From positions 1 through 64,000 of IMG/VR virus record IMGVR_UViG_3300028920_000026: a DNA stretch of 64,000 nucleotides. The stretch is one strand, 5' to 3'. The position numbers were made by a program, and so were the translations under genes. The stretch is from a virus. The notes under the pieces were generated by a model. That model ran no database searches. It had not been told where the DNA came from and worked only from the letters and a program-made list of their open reading frames with translations. Of the stretch, positions 411-37,074 are shown in pieces; the stretch's first letter is position 1; the number at the start of each line of letters is the position of its first letter.

Positions 411-1370
411 ATGTTAGGACTCTGTTGTCACTACCTTGTTCCTGGACGGAAGCCAGGCACGTACGTAAACCAGCTGCGTATGCGCCAGCTGCAGCTCGGC
501 AGGTTCAGGTGTGGTGATTACAGCGAAGACTTCATCCGCAATGCGTGGTACGAAAACCTAGCAACGCTCGTCGAACACCTTCCCGCCGTCTTTAAACGCT
601 ACAAGGTCTATAGGTTTCCGTCTGGCATCCTGCCCATGTGGGACCAGGTACCCGAACGCTTGTGGCGTGACGATGCCACAGTGCAATCCCAGTTTGCCGT
701 CATCGGCAGGCTCGTCGTTGTAAACGGTGTTCGTGCCACATTCCACCCAGGTCAGTTCTGCTCGCTGTCGAGCGACAACTGGAGCGTGCGTGAGGCATCG
801 GTCCGTGAACTAAATCACCATGCGTGGCAGTTCGACCAGATGATGTTGCCCGTCAGCCCGTACCACGCCATCAACGTTCACGGCGGCAAGCGCGGCTTCA
901 GCGACGTGCTAATTGCCAGCATCAACGATACTACGAGCACGTCTCCTTACGGTCCACTGTCCAGCTCTGCACGTGAACGTCTTACGTTCGAAAACGACGA
1001 ATGTAGCTACAGCACTGTCGACCTGCTTCGCATCTACAGGCATACAGGCGTACCCGTTGTCTTCGACTCTCACCATCATACGTTTAATACGGGTGGCATC
1101 AGCATGGTACTTGCGTCCAATGCAGCCAAGGAAACGTGGCGTGACGTCAAACCCCTGCAACACCTATCAAACTCTGATCCTGAACTTGCTTCTGACGCAC
1201 GCTTTCAGGCGCGGCGCGCACACAGTGAATTCATTCATCACATCCCAGAGTGCCAATTACATGATGTGCAAAATGACACAATAGATCTGGACGTAGAGGC
1301 AAAATGTAAAAACCTAGCAATAGACAAGATGCGTAAGGATTTTCAAATTCATGACGTATCTTTGCACTGA
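411..1370 (+). CDS. uvdE: UV DNA damage endonuclease, UvdE/UvsE family
   Basis: 319-aa ORF. Colinear UvdE blocks 'YRFPSGILP', 'VRATFHPGQF', 'AINVHGG', 'ERLTFENDECSYS', 'VPVVFDSHHH' match B. subtilis UvsE 'YRFSSSIVP', 'LRTSFHPNQF', 'INIHIGG', 'ERMTLENDDKTYT', 'VPFVFDFHHF'. Confidence 0.85.
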   Translation: MLGLCCHYLVPGRKPGTYVNQLRMRQLQLGRFRCGDYSEDFIRNAWYENLATLVEHLPAVFKRYKVYRFPSGILPMWDQVPERLWRDDATVQSQFAVIGRLVVVNGVRATFHPGQFCSLSSDNWSVREASVRELNHHAWQFDQMMLPVSPYHAINVHGGKRGFSDVLIASINDTTSTSPYGPLSSSARERLTFENDECSYSTVDLLRIYRHTGVPVVFDSHHHTFNTGGISMVLASNAAKETWRDVKPLQHLSNSDPELASDARFQARRAHSEFIHHIPECQLHDVQNDTIDLDVEAKCKNLAIDKMRKDFQIHDVSLH

Positions 1371-1894: not shown

Positions 1895-1925
1895 CCAACG
1901 AACGCGGAAGGAGTAAGATCCTTCC

Positions 1926-3524
1926 ATGGACGTTGAGAACGAACACACAAGCACGAACATCCTGTTTCGAGACGACGCAAAGGACGCACTCTTAAAGGGT
2001 GCGTCGACCGTCGCAGAAGCCGTCGGATGTACGATGGGTCCTCGTGGGAGGACGGTGCTGATCCAACAGGAGGGGAAGGCACCGATCCTGACGAAGGACG
2101 GCGTCACAGTCAGCAAGGCCGTCAGGCTCAAGGACCCGATCGCGCGCATGGGTGGTGACCTGCTCCGCGATGCAGCCAGCAGGACGAACGAGGTCGCTGG
2201 CGACGGAACGACCACAGCAACGGTCATCTCATACGCGTTGATGCGTGAAGGACACAAGCTTCTGTCCGCTGGGCACAACCCGCTCGAGCTGGTGAGGGAC
2301 CTCGAGCTCGCGAAGAACGCGGCGACGATGATGCTAAAGACTGCGGCACATCCAGTCAAGGATACCGACACGCTCCGCACCGTCGCCACGATCTCGGCGA
2401 ACGGCGATGAGGCGATCGGAGGCTTCATCGCCGATGCCCTCAACAAGGTCGGCAGGGATGGGATCGTCACCGTCGAGGACGCCAAGGGGACGACGACCTC
2501 GCTTGACGTGGTCGAGGGCACGCAGTTCGAGCGTGGCTACCTCAGCCCCTACTTCGTGACAAACAACGACAAGATGGTCGCCATCTATGATGGATGCGAC
2601 GTCCTCGTGACAGACAGACGGTTGGGTTCAATCACCGAGCTCATCCCTGTCCTCGAGAACTGCAGGTCAGGAAGGCCCCTGCTAATCATTGCTGATGATG
2701 TGGAACCAGAGGCGCTACAGGCGCTCGTCCTAAACAGGGTAAAGAACCGCCTCCGCGTGGTGGCGGTCAAGGCACCTGGCATCGGTCAGGCGAAGGGACA
2801 CATGTTGGACGACATCGCGACGCTCGTCGGCGGAACCGTCGTATCAGCAAAGAGAGGAATCGAGCTCAAAGATGCAGTTGCCCACCTAGGCCACACGAGA
2901 AAAGCCATTGTGAACGCCAAGGCTACCACCTTGGTGGGCACAGAAAAAACGAGTGAGGCCCTCGTGGGCCGGATTAAGGAGCTCAGGTCACAGCTGGAGG
3001 ACCCAACCCTTGATTCGGACGAGGAGGCGATCCTGAAGCTCCGGCTCGCGAGGTTGACGGGTTCTGTTGCTGTTATCAAGGTGGGCGGTGCCACTGAGCT
3101 CGAAATCTCCGAACGAAGGTATAGAATCGAGGACGCACTTAACGCGACGCGCGCGGCGGTGGAGGAGGGCTTCGTCCCGGGAGGCGGGATCGCGCTGTAC
3201 AACGTCGTCCAGGAACTAGGACAGGTCACCGACGGATCGACGCAGCTGATGATCGCAGGATGCCTTGAGCCACTCCGCCGCATCGCAGAAAACGCAGGCA
3301 TGAGCTTTGATGTCGTATCTCACCTCATATCGTCCACCCGGAGCGGTATACTGGATGCAGAGATCGGTATAGACGACTACGGGTGGGACGCTCGGAAGAA
3401 GGAAGTCAGGAAGTTCACTGATATCATCGATCCGGTCAAGGTCACGAGGACGGCGCTTGAGAACGCAGTTTCCGTAGCGATCGCATTTCTGTCGCTTGGG
3501 GCGGCTGTTTACGAGGAAGAATGA
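1926..3524 (+). CDS. groEL: GroEL/Hsp60-type chaperonin (no C-terminal GGM tail)
   Basis: 532-aa ORF with canonical GroEL blocks 'DGTTTATV', 'AVKAPGFG'-like 'AVKAPGIGQAK', 'VAVIKVGGATE', 'EEGFVPGGG'. It ends ...VYEEE with no Gly-Gly-Met repeats. Its stop overlaps the next start (ATGA). Confidence 0.95.
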   Translation: MDVENEHTSTNILFRDDAKDALLKGASTVAEAVGCTMGPRGRTVLIQQEGKAPILTKDGVTVSKAVRLKDPIARMGGDLLRDAASRTNEVAGDGTTTATVISYALMREGHKLLSAGHNPLELVRDLELAKNAATMMLKTAAHPVKDTDTLRTVATISANGDEAIGGFIADALNKVGRDGIVTVEDAKGTTTSLDVVEGTQFERGYLSPYFVTNNDKMVAIYDGCDVLVTDRRLGSITELIPVLENCRSGRPLLIIADDVEPEALQALVLNRVKNRLRVVAVKAPGIGQAKGHMLDDIATLVGGTVVSAKRGIELKDAVAHLGHTRKAIVNAKATTLVGTEKTSEALVGRIKELRSQLEDPTLDSDEEAILKLRLARLTGSVAVIKVGGATELEISERRYRIEDALNATRAAVEEGFVPGGGIALYNVVQELGQVTDGSTQLMIAGCLEPLRRIAENAGMSFDVVSHLISSTRSGILDAEIGIDDYGWDARKKEVRKFTDIIDPVKVTRTALENAVSVAIAFLSLGAAVYEEE

Positions 3525-3991
3525 GCATCGAAAAACATACGTTGAACAACGTTGACGACGTCAGCGTTCCACTAGGTTGGACTGTCACGCATACAGACCC
3601 CGTCATCATCCTGCATCCACGGGTGCTTCTTGCCGTGCTTGAGCACGCAGGAGCATACGATGCGATCTCCTGCCTCGACAATGAACAGAAGTCAGCGTTC
3701 AAGGATGCGCTTGACGACGCGGACGCAGCGTCTGTCATTGCAGACCTCTGGATCTGGATCAACAGAACGAGCATCGTGCTTGTTGCAATCTACATCCTAC
3801 TTGGGATGCTTGTCTACCTCTTTGGTTATGGGTACTTCGGCTTCAGCATCGGAATCGTCTGTACGACTATCATTATAGGCGTGATGTCTGCGCTATCGAT
3901 CGATCCATCTACCCAAATAAGAGACAGGAAGGTCCAACATGCAGCGGCATTGGCATCAGCGGGCAAAGAAAATGGTGTGGAAGGACAGTAG
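3521..3991 (+). CDS. membrane protein (2-3 TM)
   Basis: Start is coupled to the groEL stop. Hydrophobic stretches 'IVLVAIYILLGMLVYLFGYGYFGFSIGIVCTTIIIGV'. Confidence 0.5.
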   Translation: MSIEKHTLNNVDDVSVPLGWTVTHTDPVIILHPRVLLAVLEHAGAYDAISCLDNEQKSAFKDALDDADAASVIADLWIWINRTSIVLVAIYILLGMLVYLFGYGYFGFSIGIVCTTIIIGVMSALSIDPSTQIRDRKVQHAAALASAGKENGVEGQ

Positions 3992-4235: not shown

Positions 4236-4522
4236 TGCCCATCCGCAAAGTTCATCTCCACGGTCCGTATGCTCGATGAGAACTTGTGTACACGTTCACT
4301 GACGAGTCCAATTATGTGAACGACGTTCATACCCACAAGTTCAGACGAGATGACAAGCATCCTTGTCCCTTCTTTGAAGAACAACCCGCCTCGACGTTCC
4401 TTGAACGAACCCCACGACTTCATCTTTGTCTTGAAGGCGATGTAGTCGCCCGGTTCGAGCATCATCCAGTGGCCTTCTGTCCTGTACATCGGTCCGCCAA
4501 ACAATACGTAGATATCATGCAA
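4217..4522 (-). CDS. small PGD-family paralog
   Basis: 101 aa; motif 'MLEPGDYIAFKTK'. Confidence 0.4.
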   Translation of the reverse strand: MHDIYVLFGGPMYRTEGHWMMLEPGDYIAFKTKMKSWGSFKERRGGLFFKEGTRMLVISSELVGMNVVHIIGLVSERVHKFSSSIRTVEMNFADGHQLRGR

Positions 4523-4712
4523 TTGAAAATCAGTGAGTTGCGAACCATCATCAATGAAGAGTTAGACAGGTGCATCAGGTGGTCAGCTGGGATCACCGGT
4601 GGGGGAGGAAACGTCGGCAAGGGCGTCCAGCCCGCAGGACCGCCTGGAGCGTTGGGATCGCCTGAAGAGGAGGACGCGTTGACCATCGATCCTGAAGAAT
4701 CTGGGGAGGACC

Positions 4713-5480
4713 TCACGCTTCCATTATACCTAGACCGGCCTCGTGGATCATCGCTCTGATCGCTTCTCTGGCCAGCGCCTCGCCCCGAACATCATCACTA
4801 CCCTTAGCAAAGATCCCGACGGCTTCCTTGAGCTTGTTTTCGTTCTGCTGCAGGAATCGCAGGCCTTCAACGACCTTTGAGGTGACTGCTGCAGCCTTGT
4901 CGCCGAGGCGTTTCTTGACTACGTCCTGCTTCTCTTCGATCTTGTCGGCGCCTTTGCTCGCCATCGCAGCACCTTCGTCGATCGCAGCGCGGAGTGCGTC
5001 TCCGTTCTTAGAGACCCATGCCTTGAACTGTTTCAAGGCATCGACTGCCTGTTCGCCTCCCTTGGCGATCGCCTTCCCTGTTTTTGTGCCACCGACGCGT
5101 TTGATGCCCTTGCCGATCGTCTTTGCGACCTTGCCTCCTTGCATCAATAGCTTCAATCCCTTGGCAGGAACGTCACCGAACTCTGGGATGAGGGACACGA
5201 GTGATAGTGCTGCAAACAGCCACTCTCCTTCGATCGCGTACCACGCGGCGTTTGTAAGGTCGGCGATCTCACCGTAACCCGGGATGAAACCAGCGAGGTC
5301 GAGCGTCAGGTGTCCAGCACCCTTCAGGACGTCACCGAACGACAGCTCGTTGAGGATTCCGTACGTCCGCTCTAGGTGTTCGACGAGTCGATCAACATCG
5401 TCATGTGCTTCAAGGTTCGATACGATCTCATCGATGAGCTGAACCATGAGAGTACATATCGAGCCCACGACGAACGGCAC
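4713..5480 (-). CDS. hypothetical Lys/Ala/Gly-rich protein
   Basis: 255-aa ORF with an acidic N-terminal third and a K/A/G-rich C-terminal half ('KGLKLLMQGGKVAKTIGKGIKRVGGTKTGKAIAKGG'). Confidence 0.5.
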   Translation of the reverse strand: MPFVVGSICTLMVQLIDEIVSNLEAHDDVDRLVEHLERTYGILNELSFGDVLKGAGHLTLDLAGFIPGYGEIADLTNAAWYAIEGEWLFAALSLVSLIPEFGDVPAKGLKLLMQGGKVAKTIGKGIKRVGGTKTGKAIAKGGEQAVDALKQFKAWVSKNGDALRAAIDEGAAMASKGADKIEEKQDVVKKRLGDKAAAVTSKVVEGLRFLQQNENKLKEAVGIFAKGSDDVRGEALAREAIRAMIHEAGLGIMEA

Positions 5481-5612
5481 TCATGCCGTGCCCCGTCAGC
5501 GCACTCACCTCGTTTGGTAGCAACATATCATCAACAATGGACGTTCCACAAAGCCATAGGACGCAGCCGCCATAGCATCTCAACACCCACGAGATGAACC
5601 TTCTCAGCATGC

Positions 5613-5936
5613 ATGGATTATACCATGCGTGGCATAGTTAGAATCATGCTGAGGGAATACATTCGCCTCGTGATTGCAGAGGCTGGCTTCGAGCCGAACG
5701 GTCCAAAGGTCAGGAACGCACTGTCACCGGACGTTCAACTCGACCGCGACTCGATGGGTGCGATCAGCAAGACACAGGCAGATTGCGAGGATCCTGGGCT
5801 CGTTGATCACCTTCAGGATGCAGACATCGAGAACGATGATGATGTGTTTGGTCCAGTCCCTCCTGACTCAGACCCCGTCCACATCAGCCTCGATCCCTTC
5901 GTCAGGGGACACGATCCGGACATTAGAATCGGTTGA
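5613..5936 (+). CDS. hypothetical acidic protein
   Basis: 107-aa ORF with acidic C-terminus; no motif recognised. Confidence 0.3.
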   Translation: MDYTMRGIVRIMLREYIRLVIAEAGFEPNGPKVRNALSPDVQLDRDSMGAISKTQADCEDPGLVDHLQDADIENDDDVFGPVPPDSDPVHISLDPFVRGHDPDIRIG

Positions 5937-7107: not shown

Positions 7108-7858
7108 CACGGTCCCTTTCGAGCTCACCGGACAGGACCCTTGTGCGTACACCATCGATGATATTACCGAGCCATTTTCCAGGGTTTCGATCTGGATGCA
7201 TGCTGAGCACTGCGGTGCCAAGTCCCTTAGGGAGAACATTCCTATCTTCGTCGATCTTCTTCACTTCTTCGACACGTTTGATGAGCTCATCAAGCTTCTG
7301 CAGGTGCCTCTGGTACCGAGCCTCGTTTTTTGTCGTCACGTCAGCTCGCACGAACCTGATGAGAGCAGGCAACCTTGGACCGCAATCTGTGATCAATCGT
7401 CGAACAGCAGAGTCTGTCCACTCACGAACGTTCTTGCAGTCAATGCGACCAGAGTGTCCGATGAGCCAGGCGATCTCTCGAGCCTCGCCCATGTTTTCGT
7501 CCCACAGCTTTGAACGCTCGATGATCTTCCAGAACATGTCCGAACTGACAGCCTCGTGCCCGTGGAACGATACCTCACCCTTGAGGCGCCTGATCGTTCT
7601 TGGCTTTCCGATGTCGTGGAACAATGCTGTCCATCGCTGGCTTGGAACAGGTGCTGCTTGAGCTACGACCTGCTTTGTGTGCAGCCAGAGGTCCTTGTGT
7701 TCCTTGCCGTCGCCGAACCCGATGATGTCAAACAGCTCTGGGAACAACGTAGACATGATGCCTTCGTTCCTCCACGCTTCGAGGACGTCCTTGTACATCG
7801 AGTGCTTGACGATCTCGTTATCGAGCGTCTCTTTGACAACGAGCTGCGTGTTCATCAT
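7079..7858 (-). CDS. HD-domain phosphohydrolase (resembles the C-terminal HD domain of CCA-adding enzymes)
   Basis: 259 aa. 'HTKQVVAQ...RWTALFHDIGKPRT...SFHGHEAVSS' parallels E. coli Cca HD-domain 'HTMMVLDQ...LCHDLGKGLT...FPGHEARG'. No nucleotidyltransferase head domain is present. Confidence 0.65.
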   Translation of the reverse strand: MMNTQLVVKETLDNEIVKHSMYKDVLEAWRNEGIMSTLFPELFDIIGFGDGKEHKDLWLHTKQVVAQAAPVPSQRWTALFHDIGKPRTIRRLKGEVSFHGHEAVSSDMFWKIIERSKLWDENMGEAREIAWLIGHSGRIDCKNVREWTDSAVRRLITDCGPRLPALIRFVRADVTTKNEARYQRHLQKLDELIKRVEEVKKIDEDRNVLPKGLGTAVLSMHPDRNPGKWLGNIIDGVRTRVLSGELERDRDVGYYLERL

Positions 7859-9765: not shown

Positions 9766-10221
9766 TCAGACCATCGGGGGTTGGTAGCCGCGGACGTCTG
9801 GATTCGTGCTGCCGGACATCCAGACGTTAAAAAGCGACGGGTCGTTCAATGCCTTGATGAGTGCCTCTGCACGCTTCCCGATTTTCATGCGACTGATCGA
9901 CTTCATCCCGCTAGCAGCCTTGTTCGCCATTGCCTTGATGAGGCGTTCGACCTCAGAAACACCCATACCCGAGGTAGCGAGTGCATTTGCTGCCTTGTTG
10001 GGGTCGAGGTGCTGGTTCGCGAAGTAACCCCTCAGTACGTCTGCCACGCCGGAATTCATGATCGCCTCGTCGTCCTCGGAGACGATGAATGCGGTAGTCC
10101 GCGTCAAGGACTCGATGCTTGGTCGATCCTCAAGTAACGCCTTGAGCGTGATTCCAACGTAGCCTTCGAGCAGCCTGAGTTCCTTGGGCGTTGCCATTCT
10201 TTCTTCTGTAATCGATTCCAT
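9766..10221 (-). CDS. hypothetical protein
   Basis: 151-aa ORF; no motif recognised. Confidence 0.45.
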   Translation of the reverse strand: MESITEERMATPKELRLLEGYVGITLKALLEDRPSIESLTRTTAFIVSEDDEAIMNSGVADVLRGYFANQHLDPNKAANALATSGMGVSEVERLIKAMANKAASGMKSISRMKIGKRAEALIKALNDPSLFNVWMSGSTNPDVRGYQPPMV

Positions 10222-10432
10222 GTGTTGCTCCGTGTATCTAGTACTTATCGGTCCGACGGCCCTTCTGTTGTCCTGTATCCTTATTGTATGTCACCTCGGT
10301 GGCTTCTGCATCGGACGATTGTGACACTCTCCTGCCTGTACCCTCGCATCGTGGACACTCGCGGAGCTCTCCTCTTGCAAAATAACGCCCTGTTCCTTGA
10401 CACGAGAGATATTCATTTGGATCGTACACCTG

Positions 10433-10506
10433 TGGGCCTCCTCGGATTCGAACCGAGACGCGCCCGGTTATGAGCCGGGTGCTCTGACCGATTGAGCTAG
10501 AGGCCC
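10433..10506 (-). tRNA. tRNA-Met (anticodon CAT)
   Basis: Reverse complement reads GGGCCTC-TA-GCTC-AATCGGTCA-GAGC-A-CCCGG-CTCATAA-CCGGG-CGCGT-CTCGG-TTCGAAT-CCGAG-GAGGCCC-A. It has a 7-bp acceptor stem, D, anticodon (CAU) and T arms, and a canonical GTTCGAATC T-loop. Confidence 0.85.
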
Positions 10507-16025: not shown

Positions 16026-16157
16026 GTTCGTTTCTCCAGTCTTCGAAGTTACATTAGTTGATGAATACTACACCCTATGAGAAATTCGTTGCCAGAAGCC
16101 AGATTGCCGTCTTTATGTATCGATGGTAAACGATTCGTTTGGTTTCTGAGAGCATTG

Positions 16158-16230
16158 TGTCCCCGGCTGGACTCGAACCAGCGGCACCCAATTTAGGAAA
16201 CTGGTGCTCTATCCACTGAGCTACGGAGAC
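16158..16230 (-). tRNA. tRNA-Arg (anticodon CCT)
   Basis: Reverse complement reads GTCTCCG-TA-GCTC-AGTGGATA-GAGC-A-CCAGT-TTCCTAA-ATTGG-GTGCC-GCTGG-TTCGAGT-CCAGC-CGGGGAC-A. Cloverleaf with anticodon CCU. Confidence 0.85.
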
Positions 16231-29810: not shown

Positions 29811-30849
29811 TTTCTGGCCCCCAGACTTTTATGAAGTGTTCGACAAGCTCGGGCGACGTCGCACCCCCGAGGATGATCTTAGTCCCCTCGCGATTTTCTA
29901 TTCCAGCGAGATAGGCAATGCCGAGGTAGCACGCAGCGTCCGGCAACTCGGGTGTGTACTGTCCGCGCAAATCGACCACGTTGTGGAATTGGCCACCGCA
30001 CGTTCCGCAATCGCATAGACCGCGGTCGCCCCGCGAACCGTTTGCGCCACATGCGCAACGGAACAATGGGAACGTGTCCGCCTCACGAAGTGCGGCGACC
30101 GCAGCGGAGAAGTCCTCGGCATACTGAGCCTCACTCTTCGGTTCGAACGGCCGCGTCTTGGCCATTCGTGCGCGGTACCTGCGCACATCATCGCAGGTAA
30201 CGCCAGGGCATCGACCCGCCCAAGCGTGGGCGAGACAGTGGTCGCACGCAGCTGTGATTACCAGGTCACGGGGGATGCCGCGGTAACCACTCGGCGTGCG
30301 AACCCACCAACAAGCATCGACGTAGATGAGATCCGAAGGCTCTCGCGGCATCGAGTATAGCTCGGGCCAGTGCGCGGGGAGCACATTGAGTCGTCCTAGC
30401 TCGACGATGACCTGTCCGAGCGAGCTTCCCTCGAGGAAGCGCTCAGGCGAAAAACCGAAGCCCGGGTCGCCCGGTCGATGGTGGTCGAAGCGGCGGATGC
30501 CTGCCTGGGCGTCGATGCCCAACGACTCGAGTGCACCAGTCACGCCAGCGAGTTTGGAGACGATGAGGTCGTGCTCATCGTCGATTGCCGGTCCCCAGCA
30601 TTCGACGGCGGCGTAGTACACGCCATCGGTTACGGGTAGTTTCTCGACCGCGTAAGCCGTCCGCGGTGTCACACGCTCACCATCCGCGTTGAGTGCGTGA
30701 GCCACTAGCTCACCGCAATCGATTAGCAGCACCTCAATCTCCACCATTTCGGGGTCGTTCGCCCCGAGGATCCATACTCGTCTCATTTCTCGTCTCCTTT
30801 CGGTGGCGAGCACGCCACCCAAGTGTCCCCAATCTTTTGCTCCCACCAT
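29743..30849 (-). CDS. hypothetical Cys-rich protein (GC-rich island)
   Basis: 368 aa; 'CACGANGSRGDRGLCDCGTCGG' and 'CDHCLAHAWAGRCPGVTC' cysteine clusters. The start overlaps the next ORF (ATGA). Confidence 0.45.
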   Translation of the reverse strand: MVGAKDWGHLGGVLATERRREMRRVWILGANDPEMVEIEVLLIDCGELVAHALNADGERVTPRTAYAVEKLPVTDGVYYAAVECWGPAIDDEHDLIVSKLAGVTGALESLGIDAQAGIRRFDHHRPGDPGFGFSPERFLEGSSLGQVIVELGRLNVLPAHWPELYSMPREPSDLIYVDACWWVRTPSGYRGIPRDLVITAACDHCLAHAWAGRCPGVTCDDVRRYRARMAKTRPFEPKSEAQYAEDFSAAVAALREADTFPLFRCACGANGSRGDRGLCDCGTCGGQFHNVVDLRGQYTPELPDAACYLGIAYLAGIENREGTKIILGGATSPELVEHFIKVWGPENGLTGIYGDPARGFAGGYTDVR

Positions 30850-35820: not shown

Positions 35821-37074
35821 ATGTCAGACACGTCCAAGAATGCAATGAGTATCACGAACTTCGTCGCCCTGGCGAAGATCCTCCCGCCGTGGACATCAAT
35901 CCTGCTACGAGCGGATCACGGGGTCGGGAAGTCTCAGGTCATCGCGCAGGTTGCAGACTACTTCAGGATGGAAGAGTTCGGTGGCGAAGGCTTTCCTCTC
36001 ATCGACATTAGGCTGGGGCAGGTCACCGAGGGCGACATACTCGGTCTTCCCAGTACCGATGGGAACGTCACGAGGTTCAACCCTCCCGACTGGGTACAGC
36101 GTGCATGTGACGCACCAGCGATGCTTTTCTTGGATGAGATCAACCGCGCGACGATTGAGGTCATGCAGGCCGCGTTCGAACTCGTGTTGGACAGACGACT
36201 CCAAGGCAGGACGCTTCATCCACAGACCCGGGTCGCGGCGGCCGTCAATACCGGCGCCTCCTACACGGTCAACGAGATGGACCCTGCGCTGTTGGATCGC
36301 TTCTGGACGATCGACCTTGTTCCGAACGTTGGCGAGTGGTTGGACTGGGCGTTAAAGAGCCCAGAGATGATCGATACCATCATTGACTTCATCCGCCAGA
36401 ACCAGGCGATGCTCGATCCCCCGAAGGACGGAGGCATCTTGGGTTCGGTCCAGGCCTCACGACGCAGCTGGCACCGCCTCTCGGTCGCCTTGAAGCATGC
36501 TGGTATCGAAGAGGACGCTACGAACAACATGTTCTTTAACATGTGCAGGGGATTCGTCGGACAGGAGGCGACGATCGCATTCGTTGACTTTGCCAAGAAC
36601 CACGATACTCGGATCGATCCAGTCGACGTAATGACGAAGCTCGTCACGAAGGTCGTCAGCGGCCAGAAGATCGATGATATCGACCAGATCGGTAAGGACA
36701 ACGATCCGAACGTCTACAACGAGGTCCTTGTCAAGAAGATCGAGCGCTCGGCGCAGGACAAGCTCAATGGCGTCATCGCAAAGGTTGCTGAGTGGATTCA
36801 CAATGAGTGCTCGAAGAAGGGTAAGGGTCTTAGCCACAAGCAGGGCGTCACCCTTGCGAAGTTCATGTCTCTCCTTCCTGATGAGCTACGCATCTCCATG
36901 TGGACGAAGCTCATTGAGACAGGCATAGATGACATGAAGTTCTCTTCCTCGGTTCACAGGTACGGCGCTCCTGCGGTGATGGGATGCTTTGGTGTTCCAA
37001 TGGGCAAGGCGGGCGTCGGAGTCACACCGACGATACCAGGAATCTTTAAGGACGCCGCAAAGAAGGCGTCCTAA
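35821..37074 (+). CDS. AAA+ ATPase, MoxR/AAA_5 family
   Basis: 417 aa; Walker A 'ADHGVGKSQV'; Walker B + sensor 'MLFLDEINRATIEVMQAAFELV'; '...AAAVNTG...DPALLDRF' arrangement typical of MoxR/RavA. Confidence 0.8.
   Translation: MSDTSKNAMSITNFVALAKILPPWTSILLRADHGVGKSQVIAQVADYFRMEEFGGEGFPLIDIRLGQVTEGDILGLPSTDGNVTRFNPPDWVQRACDAPAMLFLDEINRATIEVMQAAFELVLDRRLQGRTLHPQTRVAAAVNTGASYTVNEMDPALLDRFWTIDLVPNVGEWLDWALKSPEMIDTIIDFIRQNQAMLDPPKDGGILGSVQASRRSWHRLSVALKHAGIEEDATNNMFFNMCRGFVGQEATIAFVDFAKNHDTRIDPVDVMTKLVTKVVSGQKIDDIDQIGKDNDPNVYNEVLVKKIERSAQDKLNGVIAKVAEWIHNECSKKGKGLSHKQGVTLAKFMSLLPDELRISMWTKLIETGIDDMKFSSSVHRYGAPAVMGCFGVPMGKAGVGVTPTIPGIFKDAAKKAS

Follow-up and report, generated by a model that had tools for sequence, protein, structure and literature searches.

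Dependence on the GroES lid is the defining trait of group I chaperonins. The 64,000-nucleotide stretch of IMG/VR virus record IMGVR_UViG_3300028920_000026 analyzed here (the window, to which all coordinates refer) carries a GroEL gene with no recognizable GroES gene beside it, which raises the question of how the encoded chaperonin would work and whether another protein might stand in for the lid.

The window encodes a full-length group I chaperonin

The open reading frame (ORF) at positions 1926 to 3524 (plus strand, ATG start) encodes a tail-less group I chaperonin of 532 amino acids (aa). A reading made from the letters of this DNA alone, here called the sequence-only reading, had described it as a full-length GroEL, and the family models bear this description out. 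The protein matches Pfam Cpn60_TCP1 (PF00118) with an E value of 1.8e-56 and the NCBIfam GroEL subfamily model NF000592 over aa 11 to 530 with 549 bits (cut-off, 397); its score of 535.9 with the strict equivalog model TIGR02348 is under the cut-off of 582.1. The closest solved structure is E. coli GroEL (E = 2.7e-122), and all 60 listed of the 64 solved-structure matches with E <= 1e-30 are cellular GroEL or Hsp60 proteins. Identity to E. coli GroEL is 43.1% in the alignment, and the highest identity to any cellular GroEL is 43 to 44%.

When compared with E. coli GroEL, the protein keeps the ATP-site residues T30, G32, P33, D52, G86-T91, D398, G415, G416, and D495, and the set for ATP binding and hydrolysis (GDGTTT at 86 to 91, D52, D398, G415-G416, and D495) is both identical in the window GroEL and invariant across 116 relatives. 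Apical residues Y199, S201, Y203, F204, L237, L259, and V263 are kept, and the only changes among the listed residues of the apical hydrophobic groove are the conservative swaps L234I and V264L. The R197-E386 pair is also retained. At the inter-ring positions, E461 is replaced by Ser and S463 by Asp, with R452, V464, K105, and A109 unchanged; F44 is replaced by Gly, Y360 by Ser, and F281 by Ile. Judged from these residues, the window encodes a full-length group I chaperonin whose ATP site and apical groove are intact. An intact apical groove, as the site for the GroES mobile loop, is also compatible with the use of a host GroES.

The C terminus of the protein reads ...LSLGAAVYEEE. The sequence-only reading had correctly noted that it ends ...AAVYEEE without GGM repeats; in the alignment, the protein stops where E. 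coli GroEL has P525, 4 residues beyond the equivalent of V521, and the disordered 23-residue Gly-Met tail of E. coli GroEL is missing. A short acidic stub replaces the GGM tail in all 116 genuine matches among the best 120 matches. At position 44, nearly all of these 116 relatives have Gly (87), Asp (18), Asn (6), or Ser (2) in place of Phe. By its sequence, the window GroEL belongs to a large virus-associated lineage known only from metagenomes, in which the elements that would form the hydrophobic chamber floor (the Gly-Met tail, Phe44, and Tyr360) are lost and the predicted ATPase site and apical groove are kept.

The statement in the sequence-only reading that phage GroEL homologues are rare did not hold, as 287 phage records contain a match and Marine et al. 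(2017) described a viral GroEL-only clade, with 60% of GroEL contigs lacking GroES (PMC5649160).

No GroES gene is found near the GroEL gene

It had also been reported from the sequence that no GroES gene is adjacent, and a search of the full genome had been suggested. We examined 72 kb of sequence, the window plus 8 kb upstream. There was no Pfam Cpn10 match at E <= 0.003 among the 149 candidate ORFs of the window, phmmer with E. coli GroES gave no match in the 72 kb, and a 36-sequence GroES HMM gave none at E <= 10 in six-frame ORFs of at least 40 aa from the full 72 kb. As positive controls, these searches recovered GroES in E. coli, two bacterial MAGs, and divergent phages. The reported absence of an adjacent GroES was thus confirmed by Pfam, phmmer, and the HMM, and extended to the 72 kb. 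These three approaches also found no Cpn10 in 15 related loci with flanks of up to 10 kb. As far as can be judged from these loci, no nearby GroES gene accompanies GroEL in this lineage. A groES or gp31-like gene may lie at a distance in the replicon, of whose 331 kb we examined 72 kb.

A short tail and the loss of Phe44 associate with the absence of GroES

The sequence-only reading had linked tail loss to function without a co-chaperonin, an idea that gained support when we compared tail and GroES presence across 74 non-redundant viral GroEL loci. GroELs with an adjacent GroES have a median of 19 aa after V521, with 12 aa or fewer in just 1 of 23, and carry Tyr, Phe, Trp, or Met at position 44 in 20 of 23. 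GroELs linked to the small upstream gene described below have a median of 8 aa after V521; position 44 is Gly, Asn, Asp, or Glu in 11 of 11, and GroES is present in none. Across the 74 loci, a short tail associates with the absence of GroES (Fisher P = 2.2e-6, kinship ignored). Because largely one deep short-tailed assemblage, with NJ support of 34 to 56%, underlies this correlation, it may reflect one or a few events. In addition, tail loss alone is no proof of GroES independence, since tail-less E. coli GroEL is still functional with GroES at high expression (PMC11978752).

These data bear on the possibility that the phage GroEL forms a conventional closed cage with the GroES of its host and that the upstream gene is unrelated to chaperonin function. 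T4 supplies only gp31, the mirror image of a phage that supplies only the large subunit. The residues of helices H and I that bind the GroES mobile loop (Y199, Y203, F204, L237, L259, and V263) are kept, and at 43% identity the window protein is far closer to E. coli GroEL than EL gp146 is. Host GroES use is also one option given for GroEL-only viruses by Marine et al. (PMC5649160), and the functional tail-less E. coli GroEL is in keeping with it. However, substrate binding depends on these apical residues too, and their conservation does not discriminate, while the floor elements used after encapsulation (tail, F44, and Y360) are lost together, and long tails with an aromatic residue at position 44 are retained in those viral GroELs that come with a GroES. 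A closed cage with host GroES would also leave the invariant linkage to the upstream gene unexplained, and we regard it as unlikely.

A small conserved gene occupies the groES position

Upstream of the GroEL gene, at positions 1601 to 1894 on the plus strand, lies a gene for a conserved protein of about 90 aa, here called the companion, which is homologous to ORFs upstream of GroEL in relatives. Its candidate start codons are GTG 1565, ATG 1601 (preceded by AAGGAAA), and ATG 1625. The sequence-only reading had set this 109-aa upstream ORF aside as unrelated. This was right insofar as the companion is no homologue of GroES: its hhalign probability with a GroES profile was 0.14%, and the predicted fold is helix-helix-hairpin. 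However, the gene is always linked to GroEL of the companion clade and proved to be the most informative feature of the locus.

Companion homologues lie upstream of GroEL in loci L003 to L011, L023, L024, L084, L103, L105, and L106, and the family comprises 261 representative clusters (E <= 1e-3). In all 16 independent loci, the companion is 88 to 109 aa long and is encoded on the GroEL strand, usually with a gap of 4 to 36 nt, and it was never found together with GroES. When loci were reached via GroEL within the clade, the companion was upstream in 10 of 10 (the window, L003 to L006, L010, L011, L023, L024, and L084). When loci were reached via the companion, distant members included, a short-tailed GroEL was downstream in 6 of 6; in one of them, a GIY-YIG endonuclease separates the pair. 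Neighborhood clustering found the companion-GroEL pair in 12 of 12 clade loci and any other neighbor in at most 8. The GroELs of this clade are monophyletic (12 tips, bootstrap 100). Conserved adjacency may in part be inherited gene order; sister clades likewise keep upstream genes of their own, and one such conserved ORF (L043, L045, L051, and L079) is related to neither GroES nor the companion.

The AF2 model of the companion (pLDDT 87) has an extended N terminus, helices at residues 46 to 56 and 61 to 75, and a beta-hairpin at residues 79 to 92. We found no match in Pfam or PHROG, no structural relatives in the PDB or BFVD, and, by tblastn of INPHARED, no cultured phages with a companion. 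A protein of 1849 aa (P0155) considered as a companion-repeat protein turned out to be a bacterial protein of Ig-like repeats in which the motif 'VAVAW.NG.P' occurs by chance, and it was discarded.

From the conserved pairing, we infer that the companion and GroEL are expressed together and work together. A more far-reaching idea is that, in a large jumbo-phage GroEL lineage, GroES has been replaced by the companion as a co-chaperonin or adaptor of new structure. Combined with the remodeled tail-less, Phe44-less floor, this would amount to a third mode of operation for group I chaperonins, in which the ring is neither capped by GroES nor without a partner; we put this forward tentatively, as a possibility about which we have considerable doubt.

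Other features around the GroEL gene

An inverted repeat, GGAAGGA-GTAAGA-TCCTTCC (positions 1906 to 1925, plus strand), adjoins the GroEL ATG, and its 5' arm holds the only Shine-Dalgarno-like sequence. The RNA of positions 1885 to 1945 has a minimum free energy of -20.7 kcal/mol (z = -3.65), and Rfam contains no known RNA element matching the GroEL 5' end. Hairpins are found at 23 of 148 ORF starts, so that enrichment at the GroEL start is modest. Hairpins at this position, built from other arm sequences, occur in 5 of 9 relatives examined (L003, L004, L007, L008, and L009), a pattern expected of a coevolving regulator and operator.

Such a pattern raises the possibility that the companion is no chaperonin cofactor but a small protein that binds nucleic acid and regulates the GroEL gene, acting for example via the palindrome or hairpin at the start codon. 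The companion family has a basic character, with a median pI of 9.6 and a net charge near +5, and its two predicted helices and beta-hairpin are loosely winged-helix-like. We consider a role purely in regulation to be quite improbable, though worth keeping in mind.

A UvdE UV-damage endonuclease gene (positions 411 to 1370, plus strand; Pfam UvdE, E = 1e-39) precedes the companion, as it does in 6 of 12 loci and also in L103. Downstream, the start of an ORF for a predicted membrane protein of 156 aa (positions 3521 to 3991, plus strand) overlaps the GroEL stop codon (ATGA). It has no match in Pfam or PHROG, and we rejected it as a conserved partner, because the ORF that follows GroEL in L003 bears no resemblance to it. 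An 80-aa ORF called at positions 4517 to 4759 (plus strand) has no family match; it is kept downstream of GroEL, though not at a fixed distance, in 8 of 12 loci of the companion clade.

The replicon is most probably a jumbo phage

The replicon is circular, as a 141-nt end overlap was confirmed at the sequence level, and about 331 kb long (331,072 bp once the overlap is trimmed), and it carries tRNAs. About 90% of the 149 window ORFs have no Pfam match, and PHROG matches and HNH endonucleases are present. In searches for phage hallmark genes, PHROGs at 1e-5 and 1e-3 gave only non-structural matches and one weak 'tape measure' match in the window. The 72 kb showed neither a capsid nor a terminase gene, and the window has no DNA similarity to any GenBank phage; a search of IMG/VR for an exact DNA match did not return the contig. 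Most probably, this complete circle is a jumbo phage of a bacterium. The description of the GroEL as phage-encoded in the sequence-only reading thus agrees with the virus-like replicon and the IMG/VR relatives, and the indirect nature of this evidence makes a phage origin probable rather than certain.

An alternative is that the GroEL is cellular, whether by recent host capture, as a bacterial paralogue, or through contamination, with the replicon being a plasmid or a bacterial fragment that was mis-binned. The lack of a visible capsid or terminase gene would fit this, as would the non-GGM tails of bacterial GroEL paralogues (PMC11978752). Actinobacterial paralogues have His-rich or pattern-free tails and are often located away from groES, and bacterial paralogues share with the window GroEL a group I sequence without a Gly-Met tail. 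However, they coexist in the genome with a canonical GGM-tailed GroEL and GroES, and they keep a tail of other composition (PMC11978752), whereas the viral lineage has an acidic stub of 0 to 14 residues. The best cellular matches are no more than 43 to 44% identical, and the fully supported companion clade contains five IMG/VR viral contigs (L010, L011, L023, L024, and L084). Several relatives' GroELs are on contigs of 300 to 331 kb. These points, the closed circle with its largely Pfam-less ORFs, the PHROG and HNH matches, and a major vault protein (MVP)-like gene closest to those of huge phages make a cellular origin very improbable. The phylogenetic check proposed in the sequence-only reading gave the same answer, a GroEL with features of its own and not a recent host-derived copy.

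The MVP-like gene is not linked to GroEL in other loci

The sequence-only reading had suggested that the GroEL is a folding machine for a large vault or virion component. The MVP shell gene itself is real: positions 17518 to 20163 (minus strand) encode an MVP-like protein of 881 aa with MVP shoulder (MVP_shoulder PF11978, E = 1.7e-26) and vault repeat (Vault_3 PF17795, E = 1.5e-10) domains. It is 39 to 41% identical over 93 to 98% of its length to ORFs of the huge phages LR756500 and LR756501. In favor of a GroEL dedicated to this protein or to another large shell component, the two genes lie in one genome, 14 kb apart, and LR756501, a 735-kb huge phage, encodes a GroEL as well as an MVP homologue. 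However, LR756501 did not qualify as a close relative, as its MVP is 41% identical but its GroEL belongs to a different, long-tailed lineage without a companion. In roughly 100 other loci, flanks of up to 10 kb around GroEL contained no MVP, the window MVP is on the opposite strand in another gene block, and the viral MVP literature mentions no chaperonin. The proposal found no support in the flanks of other GroEL loci, and we think it hardly likely to be correct.

Comparison with known chaperonin systems

The locus resembles E. coli GroEL-GroES in the equatorial, intermediate, and apical architecture of the chaperonin, its 43% identity, the ATP and catalytic residues, the apical groove, the R197-E386 pair, and the presence of a small gene directly upstream on the same strand. 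It differs in that GroES is absent and the product of the upstream gene is an alpha/beta protein unrelated to it, and in the lack of the 23-residue GGM tail and the changes F44G, Y360S, F281I, E461S, and S463D. With the GroEL-only clade of Marine et al., to which we liken it by description, the window GroEL shares a group I sequence on a viral contig with no neighboring GroES; tail and F44 loss and a conserved partner gene were not described there (PMC5649160). The GroELs of the cultured Vibrio phages K469 and 207E48.1 likewise have no adjacent GroES and very short tails (…TYKRD and …VYKREPVVQ), and the tree places them with the short-tailed assemblage, but their loci have no companion homologue and their genomes are about 160 kb, versus 331 kb here.

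Jumbo-phage GroEL-like ATPases that act without a co-chaperonin are known from EL (gp146), OBP (gp246), and AR9 (gp228), and for the EL chaperonin neither GroES binding nor an encapsulating state was seen (PMC7185714, PMC9598537). These proteins are about 22 to 25% identical to GroEL and have been proposed as a separate group, and no conserved partner gene was reported for them (PMC7185714, PMC9598537). We propose them as a functional model for the window GroEL, which differs in being a bona fide group I protein. As the close analogue that the sequence-only reading had in mind, phage EL fits poorly, since gp146 is about 22% identical to GroEL (PMC7185714), compared with 43% and a kept apical groove here. 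Bracher et al. left open an 'unrelated co-factor' for phage chaperonins (PMC7185714, PMC9598537). T4 gp31 and RB49 CocO set a precedent for a small phage partner of GroEL without detectable GroES sequence similarity, and at about 100 aa they are similar in size to the companion.

Proposed mechanism and implications

On balance, we lean toward a reading in which this is a working, ATP-hydrolyzing GroEL from a GroES-less, floor-less viral lineage, which operates in an open-ring cycle together with its companion in a jumbo phage. The companion gene, preceding GroEL on the same strand in the place of groES, would be coexpressed with it, and we infer a physical interaction between the products. The companion would be an adaptor or cofactor dedicated to GroEL, with a role as regulator of the GroEL gene less likely. 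By analogy with EL, OBP, and AR9, the GroEL would most likely go through an open, non-encapsulating, ATP-driven cycle of binding and release. Its substrates may be phage proteins, which it would keep soluble and help to fold during infection.

GroES-less viral GroELs were already known, and what is new here is that the companion is always in the groES slot. If the companion is a mere syntenic neighbor or a regulator, the locus would add one more GroES-less viral GroEL of a known type. The correlation of tail and F44 with GroES offers a sequence rule that predicts the GroES dependence of viral GroELs. More broadly, these loci represent a large natural group of GroELs that are orthodox in other respects but combine the absence of GroES and of the hydrophobic floor with a small protein in the groES slot. 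If that protein is a cofactor, it would be a new type of chaperonin partner; otherwise, the lineage would show a near-canonical GroEL working without encapsulation.

A divergent GroEL lineage without tail or hydrophobic chamber floor

The groEL reading frame at 1926 to 3524 (+) opens with ATG and encodes 532 amino acids. Its reading as a full-length GroEL was confirmed by matches to Pfam Cpn60_TCP1 (E = 1.8e-56) and, over nearly its whole length, to NCBIfam models, which place it among the group I chaperonins. It scored 549 bits against the NCBIfam GroEL subfamily model NF000592 (cut-off, 397), aligned end to end with amino acids 11 to 530, and narrowly missed the cut-off of the strict equivalog model (535.9 versus 582.1), so this protein is a divergent GroEL. 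Of 64 solved-structure matches at E ≤ 1e-30, the 60 that were listed were all cellular GroEL or Hsp60, and identity to Escherichia coli GroEL was 43.1% over 515 aligned positions. Judged by its sequence, ATP site, and apical groove, the product is a true group I chaperonin.

Two canonical GroEL features were not found: the Gly-Met tail and, in the 72 of 331 kb searched, a cognate GroES. Beyond the residue that aligns with E. coli V521, the C terminus (...LSLGAAVYEEE) has only 4 more residues, which puts its end at the equivalent of P525, the last ordered residue in GroEL structures. The entire 23-residue tail is absent, so that the missing GGM repeats reported by the sequence-only reading were upheld by alignment to E. 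coli GroEL. In addition, F281 is replaced by Ile. The ATG of a 156-amino-acid reading frame with a hydrophobic C-terminal half (3521 to 3991, +) overlaps the groEL stop codon (ATGA), which suggests translational coupling; such overlaps occur at 9 of 83 same-strand gene junctions in the window, and this frame has no conserved counterpart in the closest long relative.

We assembled a lineage set from the best 120 database matches, setting aside 4 chimeric or garbled sequences. The Gly-Met tail is absent in 116 of 116; in each, a conserved (T)FLSLDAV motif is followed by no more than a short stub, acidic for the most part. Position 44 has changed from Phe to Gly, Asp, or Asn in nearly all members, and conservation is also lost at Y360. 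Every member keeps the ATP site unchanged, and the apical-groove residues Y199, S201, Y203, F204, L237, L259, and V263 are conserved. Among inter-ring residues, E461 has become Ser or Asn and S463 has become Asp or Glu; R452, V464, K105, and A109 are kept. In these alignments, the window GroEL is a member of a lineage, not an oddity, and the hydrophobic chamber floor is lost as a set.

GroES is not found near the gene, and a conserved companion is

The claim that no GroES is adjacent also held in three tests, which took in 72 of 331 kb (the window and 8 kb of sequence upstream of it): there was no Cpn10 match at E ≤ 0.003 (Pfam, 149 candidate window ORFs), no phmmer match with E. coli GroES as the query (six-frame ORFs of at least 40 amino acids), and no match at E ≤ 10 with an HMM of 36 cellular and viral GroES sequences. 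These searches did pick up GroES in E. coli, two bacterial metagenome-assembled genomes, Flavobacterium phage immuto, and Bacteroides phage SJC03, showing that the test is sensitive. A main alternative is a groES in the remaining 259 kb of the replicon. Another is that this GroEL works with GroES of the host, for which the apical groove is intact, but substrate binding needs the same groove. In SJC03 (MT074146.1; locus L020), the GroES (1733 to 1993; E = 2.4e-7 to E. coli GroES) and GroEL (2010 to 3632) are both annotated "hypothetical protein" (SJC03_264 and SJC03_265), and the related DAC phages have the same GroEL match.

The ORF directly upstream of groEL (1565 or 1601 to 1894, +) had been called unrelated; it is indeed not GroES-like (probability of 0.14% by hhalign against a 29-sequence GroES profile), but its dismissal did not stand, since this companion has homologues and is invariably linked to GroEL. 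On a 324-kb contig, a relative with 63% identity has a homologue upstream of its GroEL (E = 2e-12), and the upstream ORFs of loci L004 to L006 are homologues too. Word-indexed search found 11 members; when a profile was searched exhaustively, it recovered 261 representative clusters at E ≤ 1e-3, nearly all 80 to 100 amino acids long and including one obvious false positive. Neither Pfam nor PHROG provided a family. A confident AF2 model (117 sequences; pLDDT, 87) predicts an extended N terminus, two helices, and a beta-hairpin, and the family is basic (median pI of 9.6) compared to the acidic GroEL (pI 5.3).

Within this GroEL clade, all of the loci reached via GroEL (the window, L003 to L006, L010, L011, L023, L024, and L084) carry the companion upstream in the same orientation; the L084 GroEL is only 39% identical. 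When loci were reached via the companion, with members at E of ~1e-10 included, a short-tailed GroEL lay downstream in 6 of 6 (L007 to L009, L103, L105, and L106); in L103, a GIY-YIG homing-endonuclease gene on the opposite strand (5289 to 5867, −) is inserted between the otherwise intact pair. When the ±5-kb neighborhoods of 12 loci were clustered, nothing but GroEL and the companion was shared by 12 of 12; UvdE and an AAA ATPase were in 6 each and two small downstream ORFs in 7 and 8. GroELs linked to the companion form a single clade (12 tips; bootstrap, 100). The companion never occurred together with GroES among the loci examined, and it was not found among GenBank's sequenced phages. We also observed a recurring module of NUDIX, AAA ATPase (410 to 490 amino acids), sometimes HhH-GPD glycosylase, and UvdE genes with the companion and GroEL at its end, both in the window's own contig locus (L001, 766 to 9445, with window positions 411 to 1370) and in L103, L105, and L007 to L009; DNA-repair genes thus consistently adjoin a chaperonin.

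The inverted repeat GGAAGGA-GTAAGA-TCCTTCC (GGAAGGA-N6-TCCTTCC; 1906 to 1925, +) ends at the groEL ATG, and its 5' arm holds the only Shine-Dalgarno-like sequence. This hairpin (minimum free energy, −20.7 kcal/mol; z = −3.65) might serve as operator or promoter or, in the RNA, mask the start codon. Its position, together with the basic charge of the companion, would suit a main alternative for that protein, a small regulator; a hairpin occupies this site in 5 of 9 relatives examined, where the arms differ and the loop is TAnnAT-like, but it is missing in others and only modestly enriched.

Tail length and GroES across viral loci

From 80 further IMG/VR GroEL loci and those already collected, we classified 74 nonredundant loci in which GroEL was complete and flanked on either side by 1.5 kb or more. 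GroES-adjacent GroELs (23 loci) have a median of 19 residues after V521 (12 or fewer in only 1), and position 44 is aromatic or Met in 20 of them. Companion-linked GroELs (11 loci, none with GroES) have a median tail of 8 and Gly, Asn, Asp, or Glu at position 44 in all 11, and the 38 loci with neither gene divide into 21 short-tailed and 17 long-tailed. A short tail is associated with the lack of an adjacent GroES (Fisher P = 2.2e-6 over the 74 loci, with phylogeny not corrected for). The short-tailed, GroES-less GroELs form one assemblage with weak deep support (34 to 56%) in a neighbor-joining tree, so the association may reflect one or a few ancient events; L083, GroES-linked yet short-tailed, is an exception.

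This assemblage includes GroELs of the cultured Vibrio phages K469 and 207E48.1, which have neither GroES nor tail, so such a phage GroEL is already in sequence databases. The window protein belongs with the GroES-less viral GroELs that are already known, and a viral GroEL-only clade was described by Marine et al. (PMC5649160). Two sister clades of short-tailed, GroES-less GroELs have their own conserved upstream ORFs, of 166 to 191 amino acids ending at ~9965 to 10004 (L043, L045, L051, and L079) and of 61 to 63 amino acids at ~9783 to 10002 (L029 and L036). These are related neither to GroES nor to the companion and may be other partners or mere conserved gene order.

The replicon and its vault protein

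The window GroEL was located on ENA contig k141_1101516 (331,213 bp). A gene at window position 35821 lies at the other end of this contig, and window positions 30100 to 30240 are common to both ends; the length of this overlap, 141 nt, is that of the assembly k-mer (k = 141), indicating a closed circle of ~331,072 bp whose junction the window spans. The window has clear genes for tRNA-Met (CAT; 10432 to 10506, −) and tRNA-Arg (CCT; 16157 to 16230, −) and a marginal Rfam match to a third (21172 to 21272, −; 30.5 bits) not found by ARAGORN. Its ~149 ORFs are mostly short, only about a dozen have a Pfam match, and Shine-Dalgarno enrichment is modest. PHROG matches include phage ATPases, HNH endonucleases, and helicase-like and clamp-loader-like proteins, with no capsid or terminase among them, and the window has no DNA similarity to GenBank phages. 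GroEL relatives are present on IMG/VR viral contigs and on several 300- to 331-kb contigs. The 324-kb relative (L003) has Tad4 and Tad2-like (anti-Thoeris) Pfam matches (1129 to 1473 and 7366 to 7656) a few kilobases upstream of GroEL, consistent with a phage. The replicon is most probably a jumbo phage of a bacterium.

The window also encodes an 881-amino-acid major vault protein (MVP) homologue (17518 to 20163, −; MVP_shoulder and Vault_3), for which GroEL had been proposed as a folding machine. This proposal found no support: no MVP lies in the flanks of any other GroEL locus, and the GroEL of the only huge phage carrying both belongs to another lineage. Among 50,697 phage records, only three have MVP homologues, those of the huge phages LR756500 (462 kb) and LR756501/LR756503 (735 kb), 39 to 41% identical over 93 to 98% of the length; a 2023 preprint reported the "first viral MVPs" from gut phages.

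A probable mode of action

The ATPase site and substrate groove are intact, the chamber floor has been lost in coordination, no cognate GroES is nearby, and an invariant same-strand partner gene lies ~30 nt upstream. We propose as the likeliest reading that GroEL and the companion would be coexpressed, that GroEL would act as an open, non-encapsulating, ATP-dependent holdase or foldase for phage proteins, and that the companion would be its cofactor or adaptor. Such open action has been shown experimentally for the EL, OBP, and AR9 chaperonins (PMC7185714, PMC9598537); at 22 to 25% identity to GroEL these are far more divergent, and the window GroEL (43%) falls outside that group. In the literature searched, we found no description of a lineage-wide loss of tail and F44, of its association with GroES absence, or of an obligate companion gene. 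There is a modest chance that the companion represents a novel kind of chaperonin partner.
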